Source of the DNA: Rotaria socialis | Taxonomy: Eukaryota | DNA: 64,000 nucleotides | Direction of reading: 5' to 3' | Assembly (NCBI GenBank): GCA_905331295.1 | Contig: CAJNYD010000002.1 | Span: 1 to 64,000, forward strand | Part shown: piece by piece, positions 19,149 to 53,127 of the stretch | Position numbering within the stretch: the first letter of the stretch is position 1 | Layout: each line of letters opens with the position of its first letter | Notes under the pieces: generated by a model | Database searches by the model: none | The model's input: the letters and a program-made list of their open reading frames with translations, nothing else | Told to the model about the DNA's origin: nothing | Made by a program: the position numbers and the translations under genes

Positions 19149-19192
19149 GCCATGACCGGTTTCGATCTTGCTTAAGGATCTCATCAGATGGC
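19149..19192 (-). ncRNA. Minimal type I hammerhead ribozyme
   Basis: GCCAT-CTGATGA-GATC..GATC-GAAA-CCGG-TC-ATGGC. Confidence 0.9.
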
Positions 19193-19387: not shown

Positions 19388-21513
19388 TTAAGATCTATTC
19401 AAGTTTCAAATAAATAAATTTAAAACTAAATAGACAAGTAACGCGACATAAGTGTCGCTGACCCTCTACTGAAAGGAAAAGATTACTATGAAGACATCAT
19501 TGATTTAATAATATTAAAAAAACTTTTCTCGTGTAGTGACTGAATGTATAATATCTAAGAACTGACGACATATTTGAATTCTTCAACGCTAGCAAGCTCT
19601 CATTATAAATGACTGCAAATATTACACTGTGCTATATGAGAAATTTTAGCTGAATAACGAATGAATATTGCCCAGAGTTGTTATGAGCCGTTTCCCACGT
19701 TGAAAAACTGAATATTGATTTTAAATAAAATCGCGCTTGCTGTATGATCAAATATTGAAAATCAATCAGTTTTGATTGTACAAAACAATCTTCATAAACA
19801 TGTATCTGGTGATGCTAAAAATTTACGTCGCCGCAATTAAAATGTGAGTAGCGTTAAAAGTTCAATGATTAGAATTTCTCATGCAGATATTTTAAGAGAA
19901 CTTCCACTATGGGAAATGAATCAAGCTAGTAATTCTCGCCAAGGACCATTTCAATTTATATCTACTGAAGGTTTCGCTTAAAAATTGCATATTTATTATT
20001 CACGAGACTGAATCTCGTCAAATTTGAAACACAAATCAATAAAGGCAGAATATTTCGAAAAGTACTTCTACATGATTAAGAATTATTTCTTTATTCATTT
20101 TTTATATTGAACGAATAACTATTTTGTTTCTATAGAATACGAATAAATAACAAGATTTTAATAGTAAAGCATTAAAATTATATGATAGGTCAAAATTTCA
20201 AATAGATATTTTAATTAAATATTGTCAATTATTAGCGCCGTTGTAATATTTATTTTCAAGTTGACCGAGAGCCAAAAATCCATTTAACAACTCGCTTTGG
20301 TCAATGCCATGTGCCGTTTTATCCTTGGATGTTGATGCGTCATAATAGAGACGAAATAGGATTGAACCTAAAATATAATTAACACATATAGTTAGTATTG
20401 TAAATTTTAGCCGCACTCTTGATATATTACTGTCATGAATGTTAAATGGATATTTGATAATTTTATCATTTCCTATTTGAGCTACAACTAAAAAAGTAAG
20501 GGCTCGTAATATTCCATTTTTCGTACAATTAGCAACATGAAGTAGAATCTGGAATATGTTAAAGGGCGTAAGCAACTTTAAAAACCTTACTTCTATCATT
20601 AATACATACTTTACAACAATCATAATTTTCTAGATAATGTTTCAGCTCATCAATTTCAGCAATATGAAGAAAGATTCTGGTTATGGTTTGAAATAGAGAC
20701 AAAATTGACTAAAATAAAAAAAAAGATGGATTTATATCACTCTTATGTATGATAAGGAATTATTACGTTATTTGTTTCTAAAATTTCAAGATATGACGTT
20801 TGTAATAAGAGTGGGGCAAGTGAATGGATAATACCAGCCTGTAAAGCATCCTAATTGATTTAACAGAGAAAACATAGCATTAAGACAACACTATTTTCAT
20901 CTTAAAACCCAAGCAAAGCACATCTACCTGGCATAGTTCCTGAGACACATCCATGTACGAGTTCAGACCATGCAGGGCACAAGTAAATGCTTGCCATTTA
21001 TTGTGACAATGCATCAATTCATCGCTATTCAAATTCAAGATCGTTACACAAAGCCCTATAGAATTAAATAATATAATTTTCGTGCATGATTTCTGTACCT
21101 ACCAGCGAATTTCTTATCAATAAGCTTTTTTATGAAAAGAGATTGATAATACGATGATGAGTTAACTCGTGTATATATATGGTCGATAGTGTCGAATAGA
21201 TCAAAGAGAGAGCTTGTAGAGCTCTTGTTGTACATTGATGCATCGGTAATTTCATCCAAAACATTCGCGAGCTACAATTACAACATCAATCATGAAAGTA
21301 TTTCTTCTTAATAATAAAGGTACTTCTTTGATACAATTTCTGAAGTGATTTCTGCATCTAATAAAATTCAATATACACCGTAATTTATTCTAAGCGATGA
21401 AAAATAGTTTTTATATAAAAATTATGCTTTCAAGGAGATCTCACGTGATTAGGTTTAGATTGACTTTCTAAAACATTGATGAAGATATATGTATATATAA
21501 GGACATCTGAATT

Positions 21514-21777
21514 TTAAGCTATTATCTCACTTTTTACTACATTGCGATTCGGAATAAAGAAGTAGAACATCCACATTATTAGTACAAGCAAAAATGAAAT
21601 CGAAACAAAATGCACCCTAATCAAGTCGAATCGGTGTTGTTCTACAATCTGATTGACCGCTGGATCACGTATACTCGCAAAGTTGTAGCTGACACCATTG
21701 GAAATGACTGCTACGTTTTGATTACCAGATATTCCAATTTTGTTGCTATATTGAGACTGGGCGCACAAGTTACCCAT
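21514..21777 (-). CDS. 87-aa single-pass membrane protein with N-terminal MG (possible myristoylation), FAST-like
   Basis: MGNLCAQSQYSNKIGISGNQNVAVIS..., hydrophobic segment FVSISFLLVLIMWMFYFFI near the C-terminus. Confidence 0.55.
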   Translation of the reverse strand: MGNLCAQSQYSNKIGISGNQNVAVISNGVSYNFASIRDPAVNQIVEQHRFDLIRVHFVSISFLLVLIMWMFYFFIPNRNVVKSEIIA

Positions 21778-21889
21778 AATAAAGATGATTTATAAATATA
21801 ATATATCTATGTGTATGTGAACAGAAATTGTAAATGACTTCGATAATAAATCGGAGTTTCTTCTAGAAAAAGCACAAAAATAAAATCAG

Positions 21890-22195
21890 CAGCGTCTAAG
21901 GACTGAGAAATAGGAATTCCTAATGTGCCGAGGAATTGTCAGTGTCGCTGTGATAATTCCTAGAGGAAATGGAAATCAACTATCGGTTCCCTCACAGTTT
22001 CACCATTCACGAAAGTCGCGATATTGCTGTTTTAAAAATAATTTTTGCATGAAATTCTTGATTCTCACAATTTTGCGAGTGAATATGCGTGTAAGAACAA
22101 AAATTATCGTGTATATTCCATATTCTTACCTTTAGTATGCAAGGAACTGTAGGGGTACTGATGAGGAATTCCTAATCCTCAGTCCTTGGACACTC
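21890..22195. mobile_element. ~305-bp MITE
   Basis: Imperfect TIRs AGCGTCTAAGGACTGAGAAATAGGAATTCCT / AGGAATTCCTAATCCTCAGTCCTTGGACACT. Confidence 0.7.
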
Positions 22196-22803: not shown

Positions 22804-23457
22804 TTCGCAAAACGGATTATGTGAATAGATATTCGAAAGTAAATTCAGTCTATCTAGAAAAAGAAATCGATTGTAATGAAGGTTTTAGAATGTTAGTGTT
22901 TAGTAGCGTTTTAAGAACCAGATGATGTGGTATGTGGTATGATAAGTTATCATAGTACTTTGATAGTATTTTATTTTCACTCATAAACTATATACATATC
23001 TATCTTTACAGTTTAGTTTTTCTCTAATTATCTAGCAATGAGTGTTATGGTGAATCGTAGTTGGGATGACTTGCTGATCATTTGATAGGGATGTATATTA
23101 GGTTGCTTCAAATAGTAACCTAATATTTTTCAATGGTATTACAAATCTACAATAGAACAAAAGATCAAGATGATGCTGATAACAGAAAAAGATGTATTTC
23201 CACAACGAATTTATTTTAGTTTTGAAGATTTGTCACCCTGTTACATCACACATGCACACACACACATACACACACACACTAAATTTATAACACATCCAAA
23301 ATACGCATTGGTAGAGTTCTCGAGCTGTNGTATAAATGTCATTTTTTTTGGCGACTATTTACAATATTCTCCAGTCTTGGATAAACCTCTTTATCATAGC
23401 GGTACCTCACACACACACACACACGAAATCGAAATGATAGTGAAACATGAATGTTTT

Positions 23458-26400
23458 TTAAGTAATTGAAGCAAAACTCTTTCGAGTAACTTTTGCGATC
23501 TTGTCTAATCTATTAAGTTCTTCCAGTTGTGCTGCTGTTGGTTTCACTTGCAGAGATGACAGTTCGAAAGAACGCACAATCAGGAGATCATCTAGTCGTT
23601 TAACACGAGATAATGGAACGTAAACAGATGCCACTTCAACTGGTCCGGAAGGCATAACAAGATCAACAATAATTTTACCCAAGGTTTGACCTTGACTTTT
23701 ATGCGTCGTCATACTGTAGGCGGGTATCAACGGAAGTGCTTTACGCTTGATGGAAATCTTCGTCAACTTTTTGCCCTTCTTTGCAGCTTTTGAAATAGTT
23801 TCGGTAAGAAGCTCCTTAATGTCAAAGAGAAAAGTTTGCTCACTAACTGAGATTGGAATTATTTTGGTTTGAAGATCTCTGAGACCAGAATCAAGTTTAC
23901 AGCTCGAGAACTCTACCAATGCGTATTTTGGATGTGTTATAAATTTAGTGTGCTTTGGAAAAACGGTTTCGTCGAATTGAATATCGTCACAAACTTCATC
24001 GTATACGAGCTGACGAAATATTCCACGTGTACCATTGGAAAGTCCTAGTTCGGTCGCAATGTTTTCCGTTAGTAAAACAGGCATACCTGGCACAAGTGGT
24101 AAGTAACCAGGAAGATGCTCTGTCTTATTATCCGGTAATTCGAGAATCGCTTTGCGTAATCTTACATCGCTAATGGCTGCATTTCTAACATAATCTTGAG
24201 CAACACAAATGATCGGTCTGAGTTTCATCTCCGTAGCTTTATTAAGTACCGCTCTGTTGTTTATTTGAGTTCGAAGTGTATTGCGAAAAACCAAGATAGG
24301 AGCCTATCATGAAACATTTGATTAAATATTGAAAAAACCTGATCGAACATACTTCGTTCCAGGGGTCCTGTTGTAAATATGTCTTCAAATTTGGAGTTCC
24401 GATTACTCGTGTACAAAGAAGTTCATAGTCTTCGATTGTTGATTTTCCATCTCTTAATCTATTCAATAGTTCCAAATATCTTGTATCTTCAGTACGCATC
24501 TGTTGCTCCAATTGGACAACACAATTTATTTGTGATATCACTTTTTGTGCACACTGCATTTCTATTTGACGTTCTGTATATTGTTGTGTTGAGGTACCGC
24601 TATGATAAAGAGGTTTATCCAAGACTGGAGAATATTGTAAATAGTCGCCAAAAAAAATGACATTTATACCACCAAAAGGAACATCCGTATTGATATGCTT
24701 CGCCGTTTTCACTATGCGATTGAGCCGAGCTAATAGACTAAGTCCTAACATACTCATCTCATCAATTATCAAGTACTTCACGTGACGCCACTCATTTTCC
24801 AACTTTGTGTCGCCTGGTCTAAATGTTCTTACTTGTCGTTTTTTAGAATTTTTTCGACTTTCGCCTAAAAATGAATGGATTGTTAGGCCATCAATCTCTG
24901 CTGCTGCTATAGATGTTGGTGCCAATTTTCGCAACATTTTCCTCCTCATAGTAGCTTGGAAATAATTCGTGATTGCACGAATTAATTGAGATTTTCCAGT
25001 GCCACCACAACCAGGTACACACATCAGTAGCTGGTTTTCATTAGTGCCTAAATCATTATGGTTATTCTTTTCTTTTTGATAGAAATTAGAAAAATTTACC
25101 AGTGGGAAGTTGGCTGTCACCGTCTAGGTGGCTAGTAATAATCATGAAAGCAAACTTCTGCTCAGTATTGAGTGTAAACTTTCTGATAATATCTGATTTA
25201 GTCGGTAAGGTAACTGAGATAGTTGCAGTTACAGCTGGTACTACGGTAGTATTTACTTTACTTGGACTTGTAGGTATTTCAGAAGTTATAACTTCAACTT
25301 GCATCTCATCATCTCGCACCTCCAAAGAATCTTCTCCTGAAATTAAATAATTTCTTGCTTGATCTCTTCTCATTTCAATATCGCGCTTCCATTCTTTTAC
25401 CATAGCTGTATGATGCGAATGAGCTACGGTAAACGTATTGAAATCGGCTACGATGTGGCAGTCATTTATGTTCAACATATTTTTGTAATCTAAATATAGT
25501 TTATTATTACTAGCACGAAATAAAATTAAACTTACCATTTAGTGATCCAAACCGCTTTGTTTTATCGATCGCCTCCAATGCGTCGAATAGGTAACGCTGC
25601 TCAGGGCTGCTGAGAGACGCAGAGTAAGCTTTAGTGGTGGTCTCATCTACCAACGAGAGCATTTGTAAGAGTTCTTCCGGATTGTCTTCAGGATTGTTTT
25701 CATCATCTTCATAACAGTTAGGAATCAGAATAGGATCTATTTTTATATCAGCTTGAGCTTCTGCAATAACTCGATGAAGATGTTCGTCACGATCATTCTT
25801 ACATTCGTGGAGGAGTTGGATATTTTCAATAATCTTCAGAGCATCAGCAGCGATCTCAAATTTTCGAACCTCCAACGCCTGAGACCATGTCTGTTGTAAT
25901 GCACAAAGGTCATTCACTGATCTCCATGGTACGAATAAAGTTAGCAATGCACGACAATAACGTTCGCGTGTATCTTCTCGCTCTCGACGTGGTATTTGAG
26001 GACCTAAAAGAACTGGCACAACTGGATTGGCTCGTTTGATGAGAACATGTGATGATGATTGTGGATGTAGGTTTGCAAAAGTATGTCTCTCATTCATCTT
26101 TGTTCCTTCTGTATTTAGTCGTTGACCTTCTGATGCCGTGGTATTCTTCAGTAAACGTCTGTCGGATTTGTCGATTAATTTTTTGTGAAAGAGACTAACA
26201 AATTCATATAGGCATAACGCAGTTAGATCTTTCGATCGATGCTGATAGTCTAGACGAGTGTTCACCATAACGTAACTCTGACCGTTAGTCGTTTGTGTTG
26301 GTTCTAAAAGAAATTGCTCTTCAGTTTCTTTAGCTTCTTCTTCTCGGTCCTCATAGAAAAGCGTTGACATATCTACAAAAATCGTTTATTTAACATCTGT

Positions 26401-29400
26401 ATACTCATTTTAATATTCTTTACCACCGGTTGCCTCTTGATCAATAGTTTTTTCACTTAAACGTGCTTTCATTAGTTCTGCTTGTAGATAGTGTTCGATG
26501 GAGATAAGAAAAAGGTTCTTAAATGTATGAGTAGTGTAATGGTCCCCATAGTTCATTAGATATGATGCCACTTGAACACCAGAAACTTCTTGATGCGAAG
26601 CAATCATATTATAGCATCTTAGAACAAGTTTGCGCGATTTTTCAATTGCATTCTCGTTTTCGCTGACCGGTTGTTGCTGCTCGATGGATTTAATACCTTT
26701 TTGTGCAAGTGCAAACATATCATAGAAAGCCAGACTTGATTTTGTGACGTAATCAGTTATATAATAGACTAGAGCTTTAGCATCGTTACCAGTCCAAATA
26801 AATTTAATATCCATATTGGATCGACAAGCACTTATGAGCCATTCATTGAAGTTATTAATCCACGGATGAGATCGACGCATAGTTATCTGACCTGTAAAGG
26901 CGTCAATGCTGGAATTTTTTACTAGGACACGTGGCATTCGCATTCGACAGCTTTTCAATCCATCTGGCTTCTCTTTTGAATATTTATAGCAAGTTGCAGA
27001 GTGTTTATGAATATTGGATGTTTCAACGATGCGTACGATATCCTTCCGAAAGATGCGTCGAAAATCAACATGGCTGGGATTGGGTGTTGGAAGACAGGCT
27101 GGAGCAACTTCTTTTTCTACTTGCTCAGTTGCGTCTAAATTGAAGACACATATCAAACCAAGAATATACTAAAAACAAGTAGCTCACGAATGGATCGCTC
27201 ATTGTCATGGTCTACATTTGTTTCATTGTCATCTTCTTCTTTAAAAAAAAAGCGAACATAAAAGAGTAAATAAAATCAAGTGATTAAGGTTATTAAGAAT
27301 CTATAGAGCTTGTCCGACTAACTCTGCTACCGGACAAGCTCTATAATTTAAAGTAAACGAATCATATATTCGTCAGAAAGTTTCTTGAAAACTCATCTTT
27401 AAACTGTTGGCTCGGAAAGACACTTCGTGGATATGAAATATCCTGCATTATAGAGATACGAATATTTTTAGATTGGAACGGAGCTTTGAATATTATTTCG
27501 AAATTGGTCTAAATCTTCTTTAATAATATCTTCTAAATATTGAACTAGTTTTTGACGAAAATCTTCGTTTTGAATTTGTTGCTTCAGCTGTGTGGGCGTG
27601 AATTCATGATTTAGCCAAATAAGAAGATGCAAGTGAAGTGAACCTCTGCCTTGATTCTCGACAGTACCAAAGTATGCTTTTGTAGGACCAAGTACACCAC
27701 CAAGAACTAAAGATTTCAAGATAGTTTTTATCAAACAATTAAAGAATTTTGCAGTAGCAACTGGATGAGTTGCAATTGTTTTGGCACGTTCATAACTTGT
27801 TCCCAAGGCTTCTGGTAGAATCTTATCAAGGTCTAAGTCGACGCCTGCGAAATAAAGTGCCACCGGGCTATGTATGTCAGCTGGATTGATCGTTACAAAA
27901 AGACTAGGGAGGCCAAGATAAAAGCATAAAGAATGAATTTTTGTACGAAGAGCCGATCGCGAATGAGATGAACCCATAACATGACCACCAACAATTTTTA
28001 TATGCTTCATGAGTGTATTTATTCTTTGATCGGCAACTTTTGAATACGTTCCTTTTGAAATATTCACAAGAGCTGTTGCTATGTCTGCAGAACTCAATGA
28101 TTCTAGGAGTTGCGCAGATTGCTGAAAATATGGTCTTGATGTCATTAAATGTGCATGAAAACATGCAGTACGGCGTTGTAGAATATTGAAAACGACAAAA
28201 ATGAATGAGTAGTGTTCTTCAAAACGGTGATCCCCGAATGAAAGAAGATATCGGACATGCTCGCGAAAGTCGATTTTGACTGGTCGAGAGCAATCTTCAA
28301 TTGCACCACAACCATATGGGAAAAGCGTAGGAAATATGCCCAATAATAGATTAGGGTTAGAGTACTCATTGGCCGGTCTGTTACCACGAGGAATCGTGTA
28401 TACTGTATCTTCTTGTGCGTTTCTCTCAGAGTCTGGTTCACGTGTTTTTTCTACAATTTGTACCTTCATTCTTTCTAGTAGATGCTCAGTCATGTCATCA
28501 GACGAGATATTGGTACCATTAACATCTAAAACGGCACTAAAACAGAAGCAATCCCATTCAAAGATATCAATATGCTTATTTTAAAATTTCACCTCGGAAT
28601 CAGTGGTACTGCTGTTGTGTCGCTCGAGTCAGATACATTTAGTAAAGGATCAGGAATATAACTTGCCCGTTCATTTTCACTAGCTTCAACATTCGTTGAG
28701 ATTTGCATTGTTGCCAACAAACATTCTGGTACATCATCATCAGGTAATTTATCAATTATTGATCGATTAATTACTATACTCCGATAGAGTGGGTTGTTTT
28801 GCTTAAGCCATTGGAGGGCACCCAATACTTTGTTTTTTCGAACAGTTAAGATATTTTTTAGTTGGTTTCTTTCTGGGGTGCGACACCCGACAAAAATGAT
28901 CTTTAGAGAATCACAGAGGTCGTCTAGAGCCAATGGTAAGGTAGTAGCAATATTAACAACATCTTGAGGAAAGCTTATGCAATTGCCTTTAATAGCTGAT
29001 TGAGCTGTGGCGGTTGAATGAAAAGATGAACGCAATTTTACAATGCAGCTATTGTGTCGATAAACAGCGATGAGTCTTTGCTCAGGAATAGTCAGTCCCT
29101 GTAGTTCTTTCGGCACATCTCCCATCCATACCTTGTTGGCAGCCGAAAACTTTGGTATTTTGTCCTTCGTCAAAGAAGACCAGCATGGCGTGCAAATGTC
29201 GCAGTGTATTAAAGAGCGTTTCCTTTTGTCGAAACTACGCTGTAGCCCTCATTCATAGAAAACTACCCCATCGATACATGTGAATGAAAAGGTTTTCATT
29301 GATGATACCTTGTCACTATCTGTAACGAAAATGTGTTACTTTGTATGCTATCTTTAAAAAAAGACAATATTAACCTGTGTCATCTCCAACCGACGATGAA

Positions 29401-31557
29401 TCAGGATCATTATTCACATTATACATTTCATTTGAATACAAATTCTTTATTCGCTGTGTATCAGGGATTACATTACAAAGATCTTCATGCGTCCTAAGTA
29501 ATTCAATCGATGGAATTTTATTTACTGGTACATGTCGCAGATCACGCTTGTAGCAACGAACATTACATATTCCACATACACCTTCGGCCAGAGAACTCAT
29601 AGACATCTGTTGAATGAATTTTTTCAAACAGTTAGTTTTGCATTCCATATCAATAGCCTTAGGCCATTCAACTTTGATATTTTTATATACTCCTGTTTTA
29701 CTCACTCTTTGTTTGTTTTTCAAAATTTTCGAAAGATGCCTACTCCTGCGAGCCGCTTCTCGTTGCTGTTCAGCTTCTTCTAATGTATAGGCAGCTCGCC
29801 TAGCAGCACTTCTCTTGCGTGCTAGTATTCGTTCTTCTTCAGCTACTCTCGGAGACACAGTCGCTCGTGAGACCAAAGTTCTCTCAGCAGCCAGTTTTCG
29901 GTATTGTTCGACTTCTTTCGGTGTAAGCGTAGCTCGTGTGGTAGCATTTCTCGCACGAGTAGTTTTTCGCTCTTGTTGGATTTCTTCTGATGTCATGATA
30001 GCTCTTCTAGCTGCACTTCGTTCGCGCGCAAGTGTCCGTTGTCTATCTGCTTCTTCTGGTGTCATGGCAGCTCTTCTAGCTGCACTTCGTTCGCGCGCAA
30101 GTGTCCGTTGTCTATCTGCTTCTTCTGATGTCATGGTAGCTCTTCTAGCTGCACTTCGTTCGCGCGCAAGTGTCCGCTGTCTATCTGCTTCTTCTTGTGT
30201 GAGAGCAGCTCGTGTGGTAGCATTTCTCTCACGAGTAATTGCTCGTTGTTGTTGGATTTCTTTTGATGCCATAGTAGCTCTTCTAGCTGCACTTCTTTGA
30301 CGAGCATGTATCCGTTGTTGTTCTACTGCTTCTTGTGTAGCTTCTGCACGCTTAGCCGCCATCCTTTGACGGGCTAGTATTTGTTGATTATCAACATTTG
30401 TTATTTCGGTGTTCGTAATATTTTCTGCTGAATATTGCCTACGTTTTGTTCGAGGGGTCAATGATGTTTCACTCGTTGCTGGAAAAACCGTTTCGGATGT
30501 TTGCAATAGCTGCTGTTCGTCGTCGGCCAGATTGAATCCTGGAATACGAACTGTAGTTACAATGTTATTTTTCGTTGTTGATTTAGTTGGTGTCTGAGAG
30601 GAAAAAAAAGACTTTTCTATACAACTTGCGCAGTAAAAGCTAGAACTTACAATATCCGAAGAAATTACTTCAGACTGCGATGGATTGTTTTGAAATTCAA
30701 CATTATCTGATGAAAACAATAATGGTACAAAGTGATTAGGTGTCCAATTGCCAGAATTGCGATTGCGTGCCTGTACTTCGTTTCGTGTGTGTGTCAAAAA
30801 TATAAAAATTGTATTGGACGATAGATTGGATTGAGCGTATTCAAAAGTACTATTCATGATATGAAGGTCTTCTCGATAGTCAATCCTTGGGTATATACTC
30901 CGTATGTTGCATTTGAGAACATTGCTCAATCCTACAATTTCATAAAGTTCCGAGAAAGAAAAATTACGTGCGATATTTTTCATAGCTTCACCGAGTGGTC
31001 CAATAATATGTGAATAACGATTGCTATAAAAAAATTCGTTCTTTACGAGTTCAATCAAAGTTCGCACTAGAAAATTTCAATAAAGAATTAAAATATTAGC
31101 CTCTTAAATAATCACCTCTGAGTTCACTAGTTGTTAGAAGTTTAGTTTCGTTCAAACATGTAACTGAGTTATAGAGACAATTACCATCAGCGATGACATT
31201 AGTTGGAACCATCTTTTGTACATCCAAAGCTGCTTTTTGAAGATATACTTTTGCTTCTTGATCTATTTTATGAACATTAGGATCGAAATGAGTGATATTT
31301 GTGAATTGCATTGGTGCCAAAAGCCACTCCAGCTAAATTGTCTAGATAGAACTTGAATTAGAATATATTATTATGAAATTTACAGTTTCAATCTCTTGAG
31401 AAATAATCTTGATTTGATCATAGTAATCGATAGCGGTGGATACTTCGCCAAATAATTTTAGAAGAGTCTCGAACATTGTAGCTCGATCTATTTTCCGACA
31501 GGATAAACAGCAGGCTACTGTGGCCATTTTGCCGCAAAATAAGCACTGTTTGTTCAT
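23458..31557 (-). CDS. Helentron/Helitron2 RepHel protein: OTU-like domain, 21-aa repeats, HUH/Y2 Rep, PIF1 helicase (multi-exon)
   Basis: OTU: VIADGNCLYNS...NHFVPL. Rep: FVTINPAD, GTVENQGRGSLHLHLLIW, YITDYVTK. PIF1/SF1: GCGGTGKS, IIDEMSM, FGDYLQYSPV, QQMR, YSMTTHKSQGQT, YVPLSRV. ORFs are separated by short GT-AG introns. Confidence 0.92.
29930..30310 (-). repeat. 63-bp coding tandem repeat in RepHel
   Basis: EADRQRTLARERSAARRA(T/A)MT(S/P)E in three near-perfect copies plus degenerate flanking copies. Confidence 0.9.
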
Positions 31558-31907: not shown

Positions 31908-32910
31908 TTAACTGTACTGTTTGATGATTACTCCTCTCAAACTCCACCATAGATGTATTTGCCCATCGTACAGATAACAGTCATCACCATCATTGCATAC
32001 AAGTTTAAGATTAAGAGCACATAATGGTGCTTGAATGTTTTCACAGTGATAAGATTCTCCAACTTGCTGCAAAGAAACGTTGATAAATATTCGAGTGAGA
32101 AGCGGTGCTGATTCAAATAGACTGATCCATTTTTGATCAACAACATACCCATCTTTTTCTACTAGACCGGTCAGTTTAAGTTTTACGAGGCAAGGTATGG
32201 TTGCTACTAACTGAATGATCCAATCAAATGATACTTCGAGTAATCCAATAGTAATATTGCGAAGATTGTAAAAAATGAAAGAAGGAATTGATTTATGATT
32301 ACAATCAATTAAACTAATATTAAGTAAACGAGTACGAAAGAATTTAGATAGCATGCATAATAAATTATTCCAATCCATTATAGAACTCGAATTCAGGACA
32401 AATTGTTCGATTTCAAGTGGAACTGAAGCAAATGTGCAGTCTCTGCTGCTCTCTGTTAGATCATCAGTATGAATTTCTAGTCGACGCAATGAGGGGATGG
32501 AAACAATAGATGTTAAAAGTTTTGGAAGAGATCTAATTATAGGTGTAATAATAGTGAGTTGAATTAACTTTGAATTTATCGGAGCAGCTGTTTTGACAAC
32601 ATATGTGATCCATTCGTTTTCGCCGATGAGCTTTAGTGACCGAAGTTCTGAAAAATGTTCGATAATTTTTAATTCAACATTTTCGTGGAGTGTAAGTGAG
32701 ATGATGCGGTAAAGAGGAATTCGTTCAGGAAGATATGTAACAGCAACACCGAGTGTAAGTCCACGTAAAAAATATCCATTATTATCATTGAAAAGTACTT
32801 GATCAGCTGCCATTGTAATAGATCCAAGTGTCATAAATAAGTCTATCACTTCGAAATACTCAAATATTTGTTCCCATATATCACAACATAAATCGTGAAT
32901 GGTGCTAAAC
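31908..32910 (-). CDS. F-box plus LRR-like protein
   Basis: The frame extends upstream to FSTIHDLCCDIWEQIFEYFEVIDLF (F-box-like), followed by repeated LxxLxL motifs (LRSLKLI, LRRLEI, LRNITI, LVKLKL). Confidence 0.65.
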
Positions 32911-33442
32911 TTTTCTATGAGTGAAAATAAAAATTTACTATAATTATATCAAGAAAATGCTTACGTGTGAATCTACTGTTCACTTTAGTTTTGTCATAAC
33001 TTCGATAATCTATTTCAGTTTGAAAAGTTTTCGACTGATAATGATCCATATCATAAAATATTAAAAATAGACAGGAGGCTGCATATCGAAACTGTAAATC
33101 AACAGAATTATCTGAAAACAAGAAAGCTTATTAATGCACAGAAAATTAGGAATCAGGTAATCGTGATTGTCCTAGTAATGTCAAATAGTTAATGTGGATA
33201 CCTAGATATGTTTCCAAATATGAATGATCGACTTGATTAAGTTATAGGAAGATTTCCAAGACTCTAAAAAATTATTGTGATAAATGGATTTATTTCAAGT
33301 AGTGTAATTATGTATTTGGATTAATTTATGTAGCGTTACAACAAAATCTGTTGTTTTTTAAAGTAGAGCCATTCACAATAGAAACATTTTTCTTTAAATT
33401 AATTTATAAACACAAGATACACTAAAAATGATTACAAGAAGT

Positions 33443-33649
33443 CTATTTAAATACGAGAAAACATGAGACTACAGCGCATGCTAAGCAGACCAAATTGTGT
33501 GGATGGTGATTGAAAAAACACTCGCTATGTTCAAGATGACCACAAGCATAGTGAACTGTGGGCTCATCAGCCTCATAGTCTGCATTAAGATCACAAACAG
33601 TACAGATAGGTATAGATAACTTTGCCATTTGAAATGTTTGAGTAAACAT
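33443..33649 (-). CDS. Small RING-H2 finger protein
   Basis: C-x2-C-x16-C-x-H-x2-H-x2-C-x10-C-x2-C spacing (CTVC...CGHLEHSEC...CLAC). Confidence 0.7.
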   Translation of the reverse strand: MFTQTFQMAKLSIPICTVCDLNADYEADEPTVHYACGHLEHSECFFNHHPHNLVCLACAVVSCFLVFK

Positions 33650-33961
33650 TTTGTGACGTATTATGGTAGCTAAATTCCTTGCAAACATTCAGTTGACGTT
33701 TGAAGCGACGAGTGTGTCAATGAAAAATCCAACATCACTATATCAATCTATCAATCTGAAATTAATAAAATTAATGATAGAGGCAAATTGCATTATAGAC
33801 GTAAATTGCAAAACGTAAAAAGGGCTGCGTGAAATCCCAACTAGCATTAAATTAAATGATTATTTAAGAACCTAAGCAACTACAGTGTTGCAAGAGCGCA
33901 TCAAACGAGTCAAATTTTATTATTGTCATTGCTTTGTGTGTTGTTCTTCAGTATTGATAAT

Positions 33962-38927: not shown

Positions 38928-39772
38928 TTAATTCTCTTTTTCTTCCTTGATTACATCTTTTAAGTATTTAATAACATCATTTAAATCATTGAAACGTTCA
39001 CGATGATTGAAGTTATTTCCATATGAATTTTGAGCTGCCCCTTCTGGTACACTATATGATTTAAACCAATTGTTAATAAATTGTAATGGTGTTAAATCGA
39101 ATCTATTGATCCCGTGATTATTGTATCCATATGGTGGTGGCAACACTGGTAGTGATGTTTGCGAGTCGATTCTATTGGTCTCGTGGTTATTGTATCCATA
39201 TGGTGGTGGCAACACTGGCAGTGATGTTTGCGAATCGATTCTGTTGGGTCCATAATTAACACTATGGTGTTGGTGATTGAGGAGAATCCATTTCATTAAT
39301 GTCGACATCATATTGATTTATTTCCTGATCAAGTTTGCTTTCATGATCAAGATCATCTTGATTTGTTGAATTAGAGCTGGATGTTGAGCTGGTTTCTTCC
39401 TTTTCGGTTTCCGCTTGATTGATTTGTGCTTGACCACAATGCGCACACATGGGAAATCGATTGTGCTCCCAACTAATGTCCGCTACCGGCACTGGTGGAA
39501 TCATTTGCGGTATTATTTGTATAATAATCTGAGGAACTGGCAAAGCAATGGATGCCGTTGTTGGGATCTATAAAAAGAAGTTATGCTTTAATAAAAAAAA
39601 CTGTAATTTCGATACCTGACTCATATGAATTGTATTGTGAGACATTTTTATCGTTGTCGTTTCGTAGTTTTTATCTAAAATTATAGATGGGAAATCGGTC
39701 CTGAAGAAGTTTATGAGGCACATCCACAAATATGGTAAAATTAGTCAGAAAATTTACATGCGCTTGGCATTT
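38928..39772 (-). pseudogene. Pro-rich gene with a duplicated PPPY motif, apparently frameshifted
   Basis: Two overlapping ORFs in different frames (39262-39543 and 38928-39311), a 69-bp duplication encoding NRIDSQTSLPVLPPPYGYNNH, and small upstream exon-like segments. Confidence 0.4.
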
Positions 39773-40700: not shown

Positions 40701-41287
40701 TATTAAAACAACTCACTCGCTTAATTTGATATTCACTAAGTAGGAAAAAGATATTATAGAAATAAAAATGGTAGGAAATCAACATGAACGTAATTGATTG
40801 TCTTGATATTATCTATTATGATAAAATTATGGCAAGTATTCATTGATCATCATCTATTACATTTGTATACGCATAACGACCATTCAAAAAAAGAAAGACG
40901 ATTCATCGATAGAATGAAAAGAATAAAAATTGGTGACAACGTCTGTTCAAAAAGACATTCATTTAGTAAAACATTAAAAAAAATTCGTTAAAACAAAACA
41001 AAAATAACTAGCTAAAAAAATGTCTAAAAGTTTTTGTACAGAGTAGCTATCCTTCGCTACAAATGTATCATTCATCCACCACCATGTGTTTAGTGTATCG
41101 ATCCGTTCAAATACTGTAAGAAGAAAAAGACAAATAATTTATTCTGGTAAGCAGGAAAATGGAAATAAGCGTACTTTCAAAAATTTTAATGTTTTGTGCC
41201 ATTATTTGTTCTGAAAGACGCCGAATGAATATTTTGAAAAATTTCTAAATAAACAAATAAAACAGTCTAGATCAATTTGATTGTAAC

Positions 41288-41632
41288 CTAATTGCATACC
41301 ACATCGAGAAATCGATCGATGTATTTCCCAAATGCAGCATTAACAAGATCAATGAATTGTTTTGGTGGAAATGGTCGAAATGGAAGTTCAGATTCAATAG
41401 AATTCGGCGGACGATATCTAGCAAGTGAAATATTCTTTATTGATTTTGCTTTTCGAAGCGCAAAATATGTTTCTTCCTCTTTTCGAAAAAAAAGGTAGAA
41501 AATTGATTTTCCAGTTTTTGATGTAACGCGGCGAAACTTAAAATATTTTAATTGCTGATGGAGTATGCCAGACATATCTTTATTTTTTATTTCATTATCA
41601 GTTCGATTATTTAAAACTAGTCTGCATTCCAT
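41288..41632 (-). CDS. Small basic protein, possible RRM-like fold
   Basis: Pattern RLVLNN...KSIFYLFFRKEEETYFALRK recalls RNP1 followed by helix 2. Weak evidence. Confidence 0.35.
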   Translation of the reverse strand: MECRLVLNNRTDNEIKNKDMSGILHQQLKYFKFRRVTSKTGKSIFYLFFRKEEETYFALRKAKSIKNISLARYRPPNSIESELPFRPFPPKQFIDLVNAAFGKYIDRFLDVVCN

Positions 41633-44600
41633 AGTTGATTTTACTAAAATTATAGAGAAGTGTCATACACAAATATATAAGCTAGTTGAGTTCTTCTTAC
41701 GAATGACTTTAAGAACTAAACCATATATTATCACACTAATGATACAAAGGAAAAGTATACATAAAAGATAAATCACAATGAGTGTTCGATAAAATATTTC
41801 TGAAGAAACATTCAGAAAAAGACAGAAATATGAATCCTTAGAACACCTTATAATACTATACAAAAATATTCCACTGCATGAAGAATTAATTAATACTTTT
41901 AGCCTTTCTATGTTAATAGCAAATATAAATATTATACGAATAGTTCATTACATATATAGATGCTTTAGCAAGATTCTAGTAAATAGAAGTAATAGATCGC
42001 TACATTTTTTTTCTTTGTACATTAGTATCTGTCTTTGAACTTAATCAGCGAAGAAAAAATTGTATTAGTTGTACAATATTACTTAATCACTTTTTATAAA
42101 CAGTCCTCACAGTAGGTGGTCTGCGTTTCCTCCTTTTCTCCGGCAGATTTTATTCTGATATAACATGCTCTCTTTCAACATAATTAATTGAATTTTTTTT
42201 CTATTTTTTTTCTATGCAATAGTGGCATCAGTATCTGGTATTTTTCTAAAATTTTTCTCGATAGAGGACTAGAAACCTAGTACTGTATCACCTTAGGAGT
42301 AAGTCTACCTTATTGTAAGTTTAATTTCATTAGTACATTTAAATATCATCAAATACGATCAATAGTGCTAGTGTAGTTATCAGTTTTTTTTTCATATAGT
42401 ATGCACTGGTTCCATATTTTTACATTATTGATGTTTGATTTCAAAGCTTTTATTTCTTTCTTTCATTTTGACAATTCATTTCCTGATCTAATTTAACGCT
42501 CACGATGTAACACTTCTTATTCATCGAGAATCAGTTTCAATCATATTAGATGAAATTCAATTCGATCTATTTAACTCTTGCCTTTTAGAGCTAATGTCAT
42601 GTGTCTTTCCTGGTTTGCTTAAATTTTTTAGTCATCTTTAGGTAGACCCATAATAATTCCACTCAATTGTTTTATTCTACTCAGTTTAGTATGTCGTTTT
42701 TTCGAATATTAACTGTAGTTCAATGAAGCGAGAGCACACGAGTTGAGGCATTCGCTTTGAAACATCATATACAGATGAAACATATGATAGTGATTTCTCT
42801 ACGGTCTAAACACAAGGTTCAATTATGTTTCATTTCTCCATAAGAAAAGTAATAGTAACGTCACACTATTTCTACTAAAAATGACTTTCTATTTCTATCA
42901 TTTTGACTGCACACGATAAATCGATACATGAAAAATCTCGAAACATGATTTTTACGTATGAGTCAAAATAAAAACATAAAATGATAGTGTTTATAGAAGA
43001 ATAATTAGTTTTTTTTTCTAACATCAAGTGTAAAAGATATTTATAAAACAGTGCCAAAACGGCTCGGTGTCCACAACGGATCGGTTTACATTTTATTCAA
43101 AGTTATACATACTTGAGATTATCTTAAATGCTACTTGTTATGGTATGAGTGCAATTGCAAAATAAAACCTTAAATAAAAATGAGCAAGTCTTATAGTACA
43201 TATAACTAATGCCAATACATACTAAATATGTTTGACTATGATGACGTGCTTTAATAATTATGATGATAAAAGTAGAATGTAAATGTAATATACGAAGTTA
43301 TTAACTCGAAGTGAATTTGTTGAACGAAACTGAAATTACTGTAGGAATCGATCTCTATTTATAGTCCACCTTTTGTTTATCTTTGTGATGAATTTTCTTG
43401 AAGTCCTATTGGACATTTACTATTCATCTAAGAGAAATTCTGACGAATCATACAGTTATTTCTGCTTTTCATCTTAGCTCTTTGAAGTTTTAGAATAACA
43501 AATCAACAAGATCCTATCAATAAGTTTATCTTGTAAACAAATAAAAAGCCATTTTCAGCATCAGATCTCTATAGTCTTTCATTTCGATTGATTTTATTCT
43601 TCGAATTAAGAGTTTGCTGTCAGAAGAAATTCGTAAAAATGACATGCATCAAGCTTGGAATATCTATATTATTGTTTGAGTGAAATATTTAACTTTGAAT
43701 CATCGCTTGATATTTGATACATATGAAACTAAAACAAAGTAATCCTACTAATATTCTGTCTATGAATACACACTATAATAAATATATAAACCTATTTTAA
43801 TTTGTTTATAATATTACGGCCGTTTTGAAAAGAAATTCTTTATATAAAAACAGAAACTTCATATGATAACATGTATCTTTAAATGCCACATGGATACACC
43901 TTTCGTTCACTTCAAAGATGAAGTCTGATAATGTTTAGATGCGAAAAATATTCTGATTTTGTGCTCTTTTTACGTGGATAAGTAGACAAGCTTATATCAA
44001 CTTCTTCATTAACAATTTTATGATAAACATTGAGATGATACAAAAATTCTTTTAGAAAAATCTACATACATCATCACGAAAATCAATCTAGTATTGAAAT
44101 CATCTAAAACTGTGATGTTTTCTTATTCAATGATTATTTTTGTGTTGAAAAACCTCTTTAAATTCAAGATAAAACTGATGTGAATATTTTCATTATTCAA
44201 TGCTGATTGATCAATTTACTTATTGTTCTATATGATAAAACTTTGATTTTTATGAAATGTTTTTCAATATTTAAGAAAGCTACTAATGTGCATAACACTC
44301 TGTAATTGACCATAAGTTAGAACGATGAGTTTTTAAATACTAATAAAAAAAATGGTCAAATAATTAGCTTGAACGTTGATTAAATAGATAGCCAAGCTTT
44401 GGTAGTGAGACATCGAATAGATTTCAATGACAGACTCCATGCTTTCATATAATACCATGCTTATCTCAAACATCATAGAAAAAAACATCAATTTGTGCGA
44501 GCACAAACAACAAAAGATGTTAATCACAATTAGTTTATTGTTGCTGATTGCATTTCGATCAGTATTCTTAATGCTTGCCATATCAACTCTGATACAATAT

Positions 44601-47371: not shown

Positions 47372-48823
47372 ATGACACCTGCCGTGACTCACTTGGCAAA
47401 TCTTAGAAGATTGAAACGTGGTGGCTTCAGTATTGGTGGCTCTGAGAATAATCCCACAATCACGGGAACGCAAAATGTAGTTAGTATTGGCACGGATTCA
47501 TCGTCGTCAGGACAAGAAACGTTAATTCGGAAGGCTGGACATCAAATAGGCAGAGTCTTTGAAGGTGGTGCTGATCTAGTGACTGCTCCGGTGAGATGGC
47601 TTACTCATATGCAAGAAAATTGGTAAAAAAAATTTTTTTACTTATACTTAAAATGTATACCGATCCGTTATGGACACTTAGCCGTTGTGGCACTCTATAT
47701 TGGTCAGTAAAATATACTTGACTACTGCTGAAGTAATAGAAACGAGAGATGCACAATTATGTATATGCGATATAACTTCCCAATGAGAAAATTATCCATT
47801 TCTTACTAAGCTTTATTATCCTTCTTATTTAAACAGTGAGCATCCTTATTATCAATAGCTCTTAAGAATGATTTTAATTAAAATATCTGTTATGTTTTTC
47901 TCTGTAAACGACCAGTAAGAAAATGAGAGCAGAAGAAAAATGATGCATTGATTTTGACGAATAGCTAATACATTTGCCGAACTGTATGTATATATATACG
48001 AGAGCGAAAGCAGAAGGTGAACTAGAGTGAGAGAAAATGATTATCTGTTCCACTAACAATTCTTTTGAGTAGTAATAAAAAAGTGTGAAAGAAGAAATTT
48101 CGTACAATCTTTCGTTCAAAATAGCTTTACTATTTATTATGGATTATACCAGACAAAAATTTGCGCAGGATCGTTTACACGATGTTAAAATAAAACATAC
48201 GAGTCGACTTATTAACGATACTCACTATAATAAACTAGAAGCAAATCAATAGAAACACGATTATCAAAACAGAATGAGAGAATCTTTTAAAATTTATTGT
48301 TTTACGATCCATATAGACAAATGGCAGTATAATTTCATACATAGACAGAGAGAGAGAAAGAGAAACTATCTTAATTGCATATATCGGTGCGCGTGTAACA
48401 TTAAATAAAAACACTGTAGACGATTATAAACATGATCATTTTAAGAGAAAGACACAACTTTCTCATAGCTTATTTTACCTCCATGAATCATTTCTTTGAA
48501 AAAGAAATCTTTATTTAGTCGAGCTTTTGCAAAACTAATACGTCATAGGTTAAAGCTTTTAACGTGTGATTGTTTGCTTTTAATATGAGTTTTTTTTTCT
48601 CAAAATTCGCGTTTTTCTTAGGTTAACATATCTTGTCTGCATAACGATACTATTAGTTTGTTCGTTGATCATATACTACTGCATTCGTCGAAAAATATCA
48701 TCATTCTTGTCTGGTAATGCAACACGTGTAATGCCACGATTAGCCGATATGGTATCCCTCGAAGAACGAGGAAATAAAACATTTCGTCCTGCTCTCAAAC
48801 CTGATGCATGGAACTTTTTTTGA
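47372..48823 (+). CDS. Two-exon 150-aa single-pass membrane protein, FAST/env-like
   Basis: Exons 47372-47622 and 48622-48823 join in frame: ...RRLKRGGFSIGG...ITGTQNVVSI...GHQIGRVFEGGADLVTAPVRWLTHMQENW|LTYLVCITILLVCSLIIYYCIRRK...WNFF*. TATAAA at ~47285. Confidence 0.65.
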
Positions 48824-49593: not shown

Positions 49594-49869
49594 ATGTATA
49601 TTAACTGTGCTCGACACCAAGTCTCAATTCATGGGAACAATAATAAGGTCAATATCCATAGCCCACAAGATGATCTTAAAACAAATTGTAATTGGTTTCT
49701 GGACGATGAATCCACGAACATCATCATGATTTCTATTATTGTCTTTGTTTTGCTGATCTGTATTATTTGTTATTGTTGCTGTTGTTGTCCTCATCATCTT
49801 CATGTTTACCATAACTCAAAGCTTTCTCCGAAAGCAACCGTTAAAACATTTGAAAATGAAAATTCTTAA
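49594..49869 (+). CDS. 91-aa single-pass membrane protein with juxtamembrane poly-Cys
   Basis: VSIHGNNNKVNI motif, then TM IIMISIIVFVLLICIICY and CCCCC. The ATG follows an AG acceptor, so an upstream exon is possible. Confidence 0.6.
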   Translation: MYINCARHQVSIHGNNNKVNIHSPQDDLKTNCNWFLDDESTNIIMISIIVFVLLICIICYCCCCCPHHLHVYHNSKLSPKATVKTFENENS

Positions 49870-52753
49870 CATATTTACTTAAAAACTCACGAACAACAAC
49901 AAAAAAATTGGATTTTTTTATAAATGTTTTCAAATAAATCTTGTCAAAAAGTAGCATTACACCAAGATCATTTTAATTGACATATAACAATCGAGTACAC
50001 GCTTTATAATAAGGTTTAAAATAAATACTTTTATAATTTCTTCCGTCTAAATTGAACGCAAAAAAAGAATTCTTTCTTTCAGCATGCTATACTTCGTTAT
50101 ATATTGCTTAGTCACTGAATAAAAAAATCTTCATATCATTCTGACGAGGTTTCAAAATGTACATTCTGACAATCAGTACAGTTAATTATCTGTCTGCGCT
50201 GAGATATCGAAAAGATACTTCTACCTGCAAAAACAAATTTGAACCAAAATCTATCATCAATCAGAATAATTCATCGTTTTTTTCTAATTTTTTCTATATT
50301 TTTATTCCAAAAAGTACGAGAAAAAGAAGCAAATTCGAATGTTTACAGTTTAATGGCCATACATAATTCAATAAAAACTCAACAATGTTAATGTGAAATG
50401 ATACCAAGTAGATAAATTTTAAGCGATATATTTATGTTATTTTTTTGGATAATTATTATAAAACGATGAATTCCATTCAAATGAAAAATAAGTCATTGTC
50501 TACAAATTTCTGTCTTCTCTATTTCCCTCGCGTTTAAAAATTATTTCTAGTTTAAATATAGGGTGAGGGTGTGTCTTTTCAATTCCCATATCAGAATAAA
50601 AACAGAAAAAAATAAGAGTCGACTATACAGAGAATGGATTCTATTCAATTACAACAAAAAGTTAAGAATATCACTATTAAAACTTAGCAGATTATTAGTT
50701 TATCAATATTTTTTCGTTTTGTTAGAATGACTTTGAAATGGCGAATTTGTTTGAATCGTAAATTATTATTTAGTGAATTTTTTTCCTTCATATATAAACA
50801 GTTGATGAAGTATTCTTTTACAGAAACAATTTCTACAGCTAGTTATGTGTTTTTATTTGAAACGTCTATTAAAGATATGAATTCGAAGATAAAACTGTTT
50901 CGCTATAATGCACTCCTTATGTTAATGAGAATAGCTTTAATAAAAAATTCAATCATTGACGATAAGATTATTTGATTTTATATAAGTAGATTTTATATTT
51001 GGCTCAAAAAATACTTCTTTAATATTAGGGTATGCCATAGAAAATATTTTTTTATTTATTCTGAGAGTAAGAATGGGAACGTCTGATCACCTAGTGATGC
51101 ACGTGGTGATGTGTTTTTTGTCGTACAGAAACATATCTACGCTGATCCAATTGAAAGAAAAAAATGATAAACGCAAATAGCTCAGAATATTTATTATTTT
51201 TATTTCAAATCTCGTGTAACTGAAAATGAAATTCTCTTAATACAACATACTGTAAAACTCATGACAGATAAATAAATGTTTCGCGATGCACTGAAAATTG
51301 CTTTACGATTCTGATTTTTGGAGATTGTTCGTTTCCATTGAAGTTATGTTTATTAATTTCTTTTGATTTTCAAATTGAAATGCATAAATTATGCTCAATA
51401 GATTAAAACGTTGCTTTTATCTATCCAAAGGAGAACACATGTTATAACATAATCAGATTCATAAAATTTCATGTTCACAGATACGTGAATTAAAACGTGA
51501 GTAAGTCAAAGGAAAAAAGATGCATTTAATAACTATTTATATTCGAAGAAAAAAAGATTAAGTCTTGAAAAATGAAATAAATGAATGAAATATATAACTT
51601 TGATGATGAAGTATTTTATAAAACTATTTTCGAATAGTATGTATAAAAGCACATGTATAAATACAAATCTCCATTTATGTTCTCTCGTCGTTTTCAATAA
51701 TGAATTCTCTCATTCGATTGACATTAGATACAAAAAAATTGCATACTTACTATTGACTTTTATGCTTGGAACAGCCATGAGTTTTATCTTAGAGTAACTG
51801 ATTATTCTCGTGAAAATCTATGTACTGGTACTGGTCGTATAGAAATTTTAGTTTTCGGATCAATCGATAAATACTCAAAACATGAAATTGATGTTACAGA
51901 AACATATACTAAGTTAAAGATCTAATAAATATAAATAAAATGGAAAACAAAACGTTTTAAAGAACCATTCTATCTATTTTGAAGTAAAAAATCAGATAAA
52001 TAAGCACTCAATGTGTTTTCGTCATGTTCTCTCTTTTGTATTCATCTTGTTTCGAGACATGCATATCGTACACATGAACGCCAATTCATTCATATATCAT
52101 GCAAAAAAACATAAAATAAATTAGTGGATGAAACGAACGAAGAGAAAACTACCGCAGCTATTGCTGTGGAAATGTAAAAAAAACATTTTGTAATAATATT
52201 TTTGAATCCTCAAAAAGGGGGTATAGATATCTGCTGAGCTGAATATCTTCGGTACAGACTAATTCAACATGGATGTAAAAAAAAATTCTTCATGTAGTAT
52301 CAACTGAATCTAATTTCAATAAACTGAGATATAAAATATTTCAATCTGAAAACAGGTGATTTCAGACTATTACTAATAGAATTTCAACTTGAAAAATATA
52401 TTCAATCAATGATTTTTGCATTTCAACAGCAATCTCCAATAGAAAAGGGGAACAAACGGCGCATTTTATTGTCACGTGCTATGCGATTCTTCAGATGCAT
52501 GCAGATAAGTAGTGAAGAAAGTTTCTACTCGCTCAGATCATCAATTTTTTCTGATTTTATATTTCAAAGTAGACAAAAATTTTTTTTTTGAGAGAATTTG
52601 TGCTGCCATTGAATTGAGAATTAATGTCACACACTAGAAACGAATTTAGGATTCATATTAATATTCCTAAAATTACTTGTTCGCACATTTTCACGTGACA
52701 AAATCGCGATTTGTTTTAGTTTAGATACTTTATCATTGTATATTTAAAAGAAA

Positions 52754-52970
52754 TCTTTTTTTCGAAAAAGTCTCTCTCTCTCTCCCCTAAAAAAAGGAAA
52801 AAGCGAAATTTCAAAAATCTGACAACGCCATCGTGTTCCCCGACCCCGACTCCCTTCGGTCAACCCTTATAGGATCTATCTTTTTTTGTAAAAAAGTCTC
52901 TCTCTCCCCTAAAAACAGGAAAAAGCGAAATTTCAGAAAACTGACAACGCCATCGTGTTCACCGACCTCG
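52754..52970. repeat. Two ~125-bp subterminal tandem repeats at the Helentron 5' end
   Basis: AAAAAGTCTCTCTCTCCCCTAAAAA..GGAAAAAGCGAAATTTCA...CTGACAACGCCATCGTGTTC.CCGACC occurs twice. Confidence 0.85.
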
Positions 52971-53127
52971 AATAACCTTTGGTCATACATATCGCAAGAG
53001 AAATTGCTTGATGTTAGGTTAGTTTATATATCTGCTTTTCTATTGGACGAACGAACATACGAACGAACGAACATACAAACGAACTGCGCGAGCTTACTCT
53101 TCGTCTAACCCTCCTTTCAGTAGAGGG

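Follow-up and report, generated by a model that had tools for sequence, protein, structure and literature searches.

The 64-kb window analysed here (64,000 nucleotides of the Rotaria socialis contig CAJNYD010000002.1) holds, at 19435-53127, a 33.7-kb stretch that is likely a defective copy of a large bdelloid family of HLE2-type rolling-circle transposons. In this family, ordered whole accessory genes recur beside the gene for the replication initiator-helicase (RepHel), so that they likely move with it. We put the probability of this reading at roughly 70%. A first-pass annotation of the window had proposed a giant Helentron with a virus-like cargo that was not a collection of random host fragments. 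The latter point holds, as the ordered gene set recurs together with RepHel in a related locus (L008) and in named Rotaria and Adineta records. The window itself is AT-rich eukaryotic DNA, dense in pieces of Penelope/Athena-like reverse transcriptases (RTs), hammerhead-type repeats and DDE transposases. The named close homologues of its genes all belong to bdelloid rotifers, and the record that best matches RepHel in full, at 99 to 100% identity over most exons, is labelled Rotaria socialis.

Relatives were sought with the nucleotidyltransferase (NTase)-like gene of the cargo as the probe. It has 10 homologues (44 to 59% identity) in Rotaria and Adineta records, and an alignment of nine NTase homologues yielded nine loci, of up to 16 kb, among 226 candidate stretches in metagenome contigs. 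Judged from these sequences, the genes between 23.5 and 43.5 kb (RepHel, an F-box/leucine-rich repeat (LRR) gene, acidic-helix genes, the NTase and a conserved "41.6-kb gene") stand in an order that recurs piecewise in distant bdelloid loci, at 30 to 68% protein identity. Specifically, L008, the one locus that extends beyond the F-box gene, carries NTase, acidic-helix gene, F-box gene, OTU, repeat region and DUF6570 in the order and on the strand seen in the window, with identities of 56% (NTase), 30 to 35% (acidic-helix), 43% (F-box), 42% (OTU) and 55% (DUF6570). Three of the nine loci end within the NTase; all six others continue into the acidic-helix gene or, in L005, into its upstream 98 bp. 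The F-box gene was matched in L001, in L008 and, over its last 31 codons, in L002, which additionally holds the 41.6-kb gene and a non-coding element matching 43039-43121. Furthermore, the F-box gene adjoins RepHel not just in the window but also in L008 and in Adineta records, and gene-caller fusions in Adineta records join F-box with RepHel (P0110, P0213), NTase with acidic-helix gene (P0056) and 41.6-kb gene with NTase (P0004, P0039, P0041). Two pairs of named records, NTase CAM4964560.1 with RepHel CAM4964548.1 and NTase CAM2724900.1 with RepHel CAM2724897.1, have accession numbers 12 and 3 apart, respectively; these RepHel proteins are only 59% identical to the window Rep. The longest contig is 56,892 in both P0011 and P0073.

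The ratio of nonsynonymous to synonymous divergence (dN/dS), calculated with synonymous sites near saturation, was 0.19 to 0.29 for the NTase (9/9 loci), 0.39 and 0.23 for the F-box gene (L008 and L001, respectively), 0.17 for the 41.6-kb gene and 0.26 to 0.62 for the acidic-helix genes, apart from a single value of 1.43 over 51 codons. In a one-exon tree of the NTase (24 rows, deep order unresolved), two deep lineages appear in R. socialis records and two in A. ricciae, and the window NTase forms its own branch, a third lineage beside the two in Rotaria socialis-labelled records. The conserved order, the named records, the dN/dS values and the NTase lineages together argue that the block at 23.5-43.5 kb is an old, selected gene set tied to RepHel. 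On these comparisons, the cargo is a stable gene set of the family and not a recent random capture. An exchange of modules between NTase and RepHel, considered because the NTase shows lower synonymous divergence against L008 than RepHel does, is not claimed, since AT-rich codons saturate early.

Several observations weigh against this tie between cargo and RepHel. RepHel was reached in L008 only, and in L007 no F-box gene lies within 3.5 kb past the acidic-helix gene. The adjacency of NTase and RepHel in the named records is inferred from accession numbers and not read from DNA, and an NTase is, among the records listed, the neighbour by accession for one of the 10 RepHel clusters checked (of at least 120). 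The nine loci come from four assemblies, six of them from a single metagenome assembly; yet these show 56 to 79% mutual identity in exon 3 where measured. Recurrence of the cargo between the same subterminal inverted repeats (subTIRs) had been proposed as a check: the cargo recurs beside RepHel in distant relatives, but the subTIR core was found in none of the nine loci, and no relative reached a terminus.

The class of the element follows from RepHel. Pfam recognises DUF6570 (E=1.4e-42), Helitron_like_N (E=1e-35) and PIF1 (E=4e-25), and the protein carries HUH, tyrosine and Walker A motifs, although its frame is interrupted in the window copy. The OTU domain is seen through relatives that align to the exons at 31503-30654, so that the OTU-Rep-PIF1 gene described earlier is borne out. 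The frame ends at 23458, after PIF1, and no endonuclease was found in 21 downstream open reading frames (ORFs) of at least 45 aa or in four relatives of 1878 to 2305 aa. RepHel appears to have no C-terminal endonuclease; under the definitions of PMC4067079, PMC5148889 and PMC11417382, the element is therefore classed as HLE2/Helitron2-type rather than as a strict-sense Helentron. DUF6570 is itself an HLE2 marker domain (PMC11417382). A strict-sense Helentron has an apurinic/apyrimidinic (AP) endonuclease fused to the C-terminus of RepHel, and the earlier label is therefore abandoned.

At 29251-29249 the frame contains a stop in place of the sense codon found in four relatives; this stop and the failure to find a canonical splice donor near 27498 make the window copy of RepHel likely non-autonomous now. 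With this stop and a miniature inverted-repeat transposable element (MITE) in its NTase gene, the window copy as a whole is likely dead. In a separate observation, an Adineta steineri record (P0059) has a duplicated Rep region with two tyrosine motifs, possibly through self-insertion or as a tandem element.

Both termini were located as first described. The subTIR CCCTCTACTGAAAG (14 bp) lies at 19462-19475 and, inverted, at 53114-53127. The element is oriented along the minus strand. With at most two mismatches it occurs at four sites in the window, the other two being the ends of a 630-bp HINE (8598 and 9187), and the number of exact matches expected by chance in the window is about 1e-4. At the 5′ side, 52753-52985 is occupied by a 122-bp tandem pair with (CT)n, and a GAAC-type microsatellite lies at 53047-53084. 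The claim that the HINE is bounded by the same signatures also stands: the two share 13 to 14 bp of identical subTIR and 90% identity over the last 41 bp, against thresholds of at least 11 bp and 80%, and the 6-bp hairpin stem differs between them by two compensatory pair changes (-7.1 and -10.4 kcal/mol for the 46-nt ends). Apart from the 3′ end, only 19 bp at the 5′ end are alike; hence the HINE and the large element appear to be family partners and not parent and deletion product.

Sequencing runs were compared as short contigs, and contig depths were not taken as copy numbers. X9, X10 (sludge) and X12 (wastewater) are runs of three other studies, found via 40.5-50.4 kb (the 5′ cargo), whereas X6 is a possible source run and X14 an RNA-type run. 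The search of runs listed no RNA holder, which counts neither for nor against the element. Five X9 contigs depart from the window at 19434 with differing loose ends (agreement 0.52). As contigs with differing flanks diverge exactly there, the 3′ end seems to be a real mobile boundary; the five contigs could themselves be HINE ends.

The element is likely at least 20 kb in size, and 33.7 kb here. It is probable that the element comprises the full 33.7 kb, the outer 4 kb and 9.6 kb among them. Both outer junctions are T|T in the correct orientation, and with only four subTIRs in the window, no internal termini of the family are left. Furthermore, pieces of RepHel and of the 3′ cargo are likewise present in X9, X10 and X12 (21, 21 and 17 of 23 interior bins, respectively), at roughly 96 to 99.8% identity among the matches listed (for example, 1 difference in 540 bp and 10 in 543 bp). 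Thus, inner and outer parts occur together in the three runs, though this co-occurrence would also follow if the runs held the same species.

The strongest competitor, which we nevertheless regard as unlikely, is a composite locus. Here, an element of about 20 kb (RepHel and core cargo) would be real, the outer 3′ 4 kb and 5′ 9.6 kb would stem from separate non-autonomous relatives or nested copies, the parts would have been joined by recombination or scaffolding, and the 33.7-kb unit would never have moved whole. The flanks speak for it, as they come from different places of a retroelement and do not form one target site; if they did, about 1.5 kb of the retroelement would be missing. When they are joined, the RT frame closes 2 codons after the junction, as against a frame open for 94 codons across the HINE site. 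A single N at 23329, with inverted bits of helicase sequence beside it, parts the 3′ terminus from RepHel and is likely a scaffold join; an X6 contig tracks the window to 23245 and then diverges for 38 letters. X6 also holds diverged versions of the outer parts only (19493-21845 and 50052-52177). In addition, the 90% cluster of the membrane protein P0216 has members in many R. magnacalcarata contigs, where RepHel is at best, among the matches listed, 81% identical to that of the window, so the 5′ part may have a separate history. Finally, L008 differs from the window within 4.5 kb upstream of the NTase and has a DDE transposase there.

Against a composite origin stand the same four subTIRs and T|T junctions, together with the co-occurrence of inner and outer parts in the three runs. 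Moreover, internally deleted derivatives with both ends are expected of one long element (PMC4067079), and the X6 versions would be expected of such deletion derivatives, as of an allele too. For the single element that we prefer, the mismatch of the flanks would be due to two insertions having recombined or to a deletion next to a single one. Contig cover of the unique flanks is low (left bins 1, 2 and 0 of 5 in X9, X10 and X12, respectively; depth 0.63 and 0 in the last right bin), which fits an element without these flanks but is not counted, as missing contig cover proves nothing. As separate observations, single Ns at 5639 and 54632 (regions 4267-7008 and 54632-55586), beside a 1.37-kb direct duplication (97%) and a 103-bp inverted copy, are likely assembly joins like the one at 23329. 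The 3′ flank (18754-19434) has four tandem hammerhead-type cores ending in three telomeric repeats, a Terminon-like 3′ end, and three more such cores lie at 56059-57511; none of the cores passes the Rfam gathering cut-off.

Next to be weighed is a virus-like element, that is, a rolling-circle replicon that would spread between cells or animals by means of membrane or envelope proteins; this is very unlikely. It draws on the NTase, which outside rotifers most resembles giant-virus proteins. Among Atlas clusters, the nearest are two from rotifers and one from giant viruses (0.92), with Gad2 on 12 to 13% of members (PF26128 on 13% of the nearest cluster, precomputed for the relative P0002), and the best viral folds, the top five rows, are from giant viruses (BFVD, E=2e-8 to 1e-6). 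These viral fold matches are biased, since the fold search had no library of cellular predicted structures. The P0002 model (mean predicted local distance difference test score (pLDDT) 46, higher in the core region) matches the heads of CCA-adding enzymes with Z 10.2 and a root-mean-square deviation of 3.2 Å over 125 residues, and the top seven rows of the fold search are all tRNA-processing or CCA enzymes. CCA-type nucleotidyltransferases normally carry two acidic metal ligands. In contrast, the motif here is D-x-N in relatives and N-x-N in the window, which weighs against the assignment. The Pfam scan of four NTase relatives gave no family match, and the NTase had no match in phage records.

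The second support for a virus-like element is L002:7621-9315, an intact 552-aa ORF resembling a paramyxovirus F envelope protein, with signal peptide, RNKR site and C-terminal membrane anchor. It scores 0.98 to envelope and fusion-glycoprotein clusters, at a low Atlas recognition value (1387), and Pfam and PDB gave no match of note. Duplicated acidic-helix genes flank it, telomeric repeats precede it, and no gag, pol or long terminal repeat was seen nearby. TelKA retrotransposons of bdelloids carry such an env (PMC5408684). Since the ORF was found in one of the nine loci but is absent from the window, it is more likely a stray capture. The third support is the four small membrane genes of the window, with an RxR/KR site in 23 of the 90 P0216-family members. 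However, P0216 does not align with the L002 ORF (probability 0.2), a Fusion_gly match appears in 1/90 members below threshold, and P0216 as a cut-down envelope protein is not supported. Furthermore, no capsid, packaging ATPase, PolB/polymerase or integrase was found among the ORFs scanned, several genes having neither a family nor a fold model. Thus, of the "virus-like" description, the giant-virus look-alikes of the NTase and the envelope-like ORF of one relative remain, but not capsid or polymerase. A bolder version, in which giant-virus-type NTase, ubiquitin effectors, furin-site membrane proteins and, in some lineages, an F-like envelope make up a half-virus family whose elements and cargo pass between animals, seems improbable; if true, such elements would be a vehicle for gene transfer in asexual rotifers.

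The weakest explanation, an old bdelloid host gene cluster with Helitrons inserted in or beside it and termini bracketing it by chance, can almost be set aside: the genes do have introns, purifying selection, NTase lineages common to sister species and host-type processing of one transcript, and F-box/LRR genes are common in bdelloid genomes, but the F-box gene keeps its place beside RepHel though the RepHel proteins are only 42 to 73% identical, repeated independent insertion at a single spot and in a single orientation is improbable, and the block lies inside retroelement DNA.

In Helitrons, RepHel nicks the 5′ end, PIF1 displaces one strand, the 3′ hairpin ends synthesis, and insertion is at T|T without target duplication. 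The family element would likewise be copied as a rolling circle from the 5′ subTIR to the 3′ hairpin; with such nick-to-hairpin copying, everything between the subTIRs would be copied, and RepHel of the same family would also move the HINE. A tentative proposition is that the cargo persists because it benefits the element in its conflict with the host. If so, OTU would remove ubiquitin from the covalent RepHel-DNA intermediate, host restriction factors would be targeted for degradation by the F-box/LRR and RING proteins, and small-RNA silencing would be blunted through binding or tailing of RNA 3′ ends by the NTase-fold protein. The "ubiquitin effectors" claimed earlier are secure for OTU and weak for F-box (E=0.018, in the L008 copy) and RING (all eight ligands in the window ORF, none in the nine loci).

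The cargo comprises about 12 genes besides RepHel (Table 1), close to the ten small genes first counted, with the correction that 47375-48823 and 49594-49869 lie on the strand opposite to RepHel. The acidic-helix genes had no match in Pfam or PDB, and a ubiquitin-interacting motif is not supported by that comparison; the helix may resemble RPA-binding helices. The small two-ORF gene is weakly conserved (window against the loci, E=0.17 to 0.42 and 0.004; L008 against L002, E=1e-5). A structure model of the 41.6-kb gene product was unusable (pLDDT 42), and the 83-bp element has a second, inverted copy at 47649-47694. The P0216 family consists of 90 clusters of small membrane proteins without a Pfam name, with a conserved PxxW amphipathic stretch before the membrane segment, which is predicted in 60/90. 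A single family for three small membrane genes was rejected, as the P0216 profile misses 21514-21777 and 49594-49869 at E<1. An X14 contig over 49592-49965 has an untemplated leader at the AG before the ATG and untemplated poly(A) after AATAAA; the same leader also ends a second, unrelated contig at 54278, and its letters are, we assume, those of the bdelloid 23-nt spliced leader. Bdelloids trans-splice a leader of this length (PMC1925144). Within the 3′ end, several short minus-strand ORFs at 20225-21271, with no family match, may be one decayed multi-exon gene, and more small inverted-repeat insertions lie within the element at 21877-22208 and 40297-40703.

Table 1. Features of the element, its HINE partner and its flanks, in window coordinates
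Feature	Position	Strand	Remark
HINE, 630-bp non-autonomous	8571..9200	-	termini common with large element
3′ flank: telomeric repeats + four hammerhead-type units, last truncated	18754..19434	-	not continuation of 5′ flank
3′ terminus	19435..19475	-	subTIR 19462-19475, 6-bp hairpin 19443-19458, terminal CTTG, then T-rich flank
87-aa ORF, one predicted transmembrane segment, Met-Gly start	21514..21777	-	no family match above cut-off
105-aa ORF, one predicted transmembrane segment	22486..22803	-	no family match above cut-off
(GT)n tract, single N at 23329, two short inverted helicase-sequence copies	23247..23430	.	likely assembly join
RepHel, multi-exon: OTU - 23-aa repeats - DUF6570 - Rep (HUH + Y motifs) - PIF1	23458..31557	-	Pfam + relatives
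F-box/LRR-like gene	31908..33049	-	43-48% identity to L008 and L001
81-aa ORF with complete RING-H2 ligand pattern	33443..33688	-	zf-RING_2 E=0.004, below cut-off
Two paralogous ~100-aa acidic-helix genes, EIxDEELL motif at end	33962..35188	-	sequence
NTase, four exons, CCA-adding-enzyme-like nucleotidyltransferase head (Gad2-like)	35588..37847	-	split by MITE
Palindromic MITE, 788 bp, 8-bp target duplication	36874..37661	.	nested in NTase gene
Small two-ORF gene, CxxC motif + acidic tract	38928..39567	-	counterpart at same position in L002, L008
41.6-kb gene, conserved, no known family	41010..41632	-	65-68% identity to L002, Rotaria/Adineta records
Non-coding 83-bp element	43039..43121	-	81% identity at same position in L002
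P0216, two-exon 150-aa single-pass membrane protein, RRLKR near N-terminus	47375..48823	+	X14 contig over 48620-49058
91-aa membrane protein with cysteine string	49594..49869	+	processed transcript in X14
5′ terminus	52753..53128	-	T + subTIR 53114-53127, microsatellite, 122-bp tandem pair
5′ flank: Penelope/Athena-like RT frame cut at junction	53128..53700	-	X6, X9 contigs continue RT past 53128

Outside the element, a 244-aa ORF at 53696-54559, with no Pfam match, is covered by an RNA-type contig in which the untemplated leader sits at 54278 and a poly(T) tract ends the sequence at 53696. A 4.8-kb element at 57540-62388, with 513-bp inverted repeats (99% identical) and a DDE_Tnp_4 transposase, is nested in a Penelope-like element. 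The window further contains, at 12529-16816, a CACTA/Transposase_21-like ORF (15635-16816) with upstream ORFs, and, at 10724-11479, an 81-bp tandem array with a 94-N gap. The Rfam scan of the window gave no match, none of 14 proteins matched PHROGs, and the prokaryote genome scans gave no match. Neither did viral contigs scanned with DUF6570, Rep, the NTase alignment, the L002 envelope ORF, P0216 and the 3′ terminus pattern.

In the literature consulted, mostly outside subscription journals, cargo-bearing Helitrons in rotifers were not found described, although the supplements of PMC11417382 or PMC7943196 could list such elements. The available part of PMC7943196 gives no more than a bulk figure for rolling-circle elements in bdelloids, and other Helitron cases in PMC13085455, PMC13439237 and 10.1101/2025.11.13.688278, as far as these texts were accessible, are without such a gene set. 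HLE2/Helitron2 elements (HELIANO, PMC11417382; Fusarium FoHeli, PMC5148889) resemble the window element in their asymmetric terminal inverted repeats, 3′ stem-loop, T|T site, DUF6570, OTU upstream of Rep, no need for an endonuclease, and same-ended non-autonomous partners; a circular intermediate is reported for the Fusarium relatives (PMC5148889). The HELIANO survey describes single extra domains within 4 kb of RepHel, farther ones being filtered out (PMC11417382), whereas in the window family a block of five or more separate multi-exon genes, spanning some 12 kb upstream of RepHel, is conserved across two genera. Helentrons with their HINE/DINE-1 partners (PMC4067079) share subTIRs of 12 to 15 bp, the 3′ palindrome, the 5′ microsatellite and tandem repeats, T-rich targets and OTU; the window element differs in having no AP endonuclease fused to RepHel, no RPA match and a far larger cargo. 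Gad2 of Bacillus phages, an anti-defence protein that blocks bacterial Gabija, is like the NTase in its size of about 400 to 450 aa and its predicted nucleotidyltransferase domain (10.1101/2023.05.01.538930).

Gene-capturing Helitrons of maize and fungi are also large through extra sequence between the termini, reaching 39 kb in maize and 14 kb in fungi, but their cargo is mostly gene fragments, full-length capture being "exceptionally rare" according to a 2019 review (PMC6431247). The whole genes of the window family, unlike these, keep their order and purifying selection. They lie mostly upstream of RepHel, whereas terminator bypass predicts cargo at the 3′ end. Acquisition of gene fragments is a well-known trait of Helitron-like elements. 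A family that maintains whole genes, in order and under selection, in different rotifer genera would correspond, among rolling-circle elements, to Terminons and Starships. The roles of accessory genes in a eukaryotic DNA transposon, such as counter-silencing and ubiquitin control, would become testable, some "host" or "horizontally acquired" genes in bdelloid annotations would be transposon genes, and the family would be a candidate carrier for DNA transfer in bdelloids. Starships use a tyrosine recombinase. These fungal elements are likewise giant and combine a mobilising gene with whole cargo genes, but theirs is a variable, host-benefit cargo (PMC13439237), while the window element has HUH rolling-circle chemistry and a conserved core. 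The Terminons of bdelloids (PMC6431247, PMC5408684) are alike in being giant, with many accessory ORFs, including membrane proteins, and in their telomere-type region; however, they are retroelements ended by hammerhead repeats, and they make up the flanks in the window and not the element itself.

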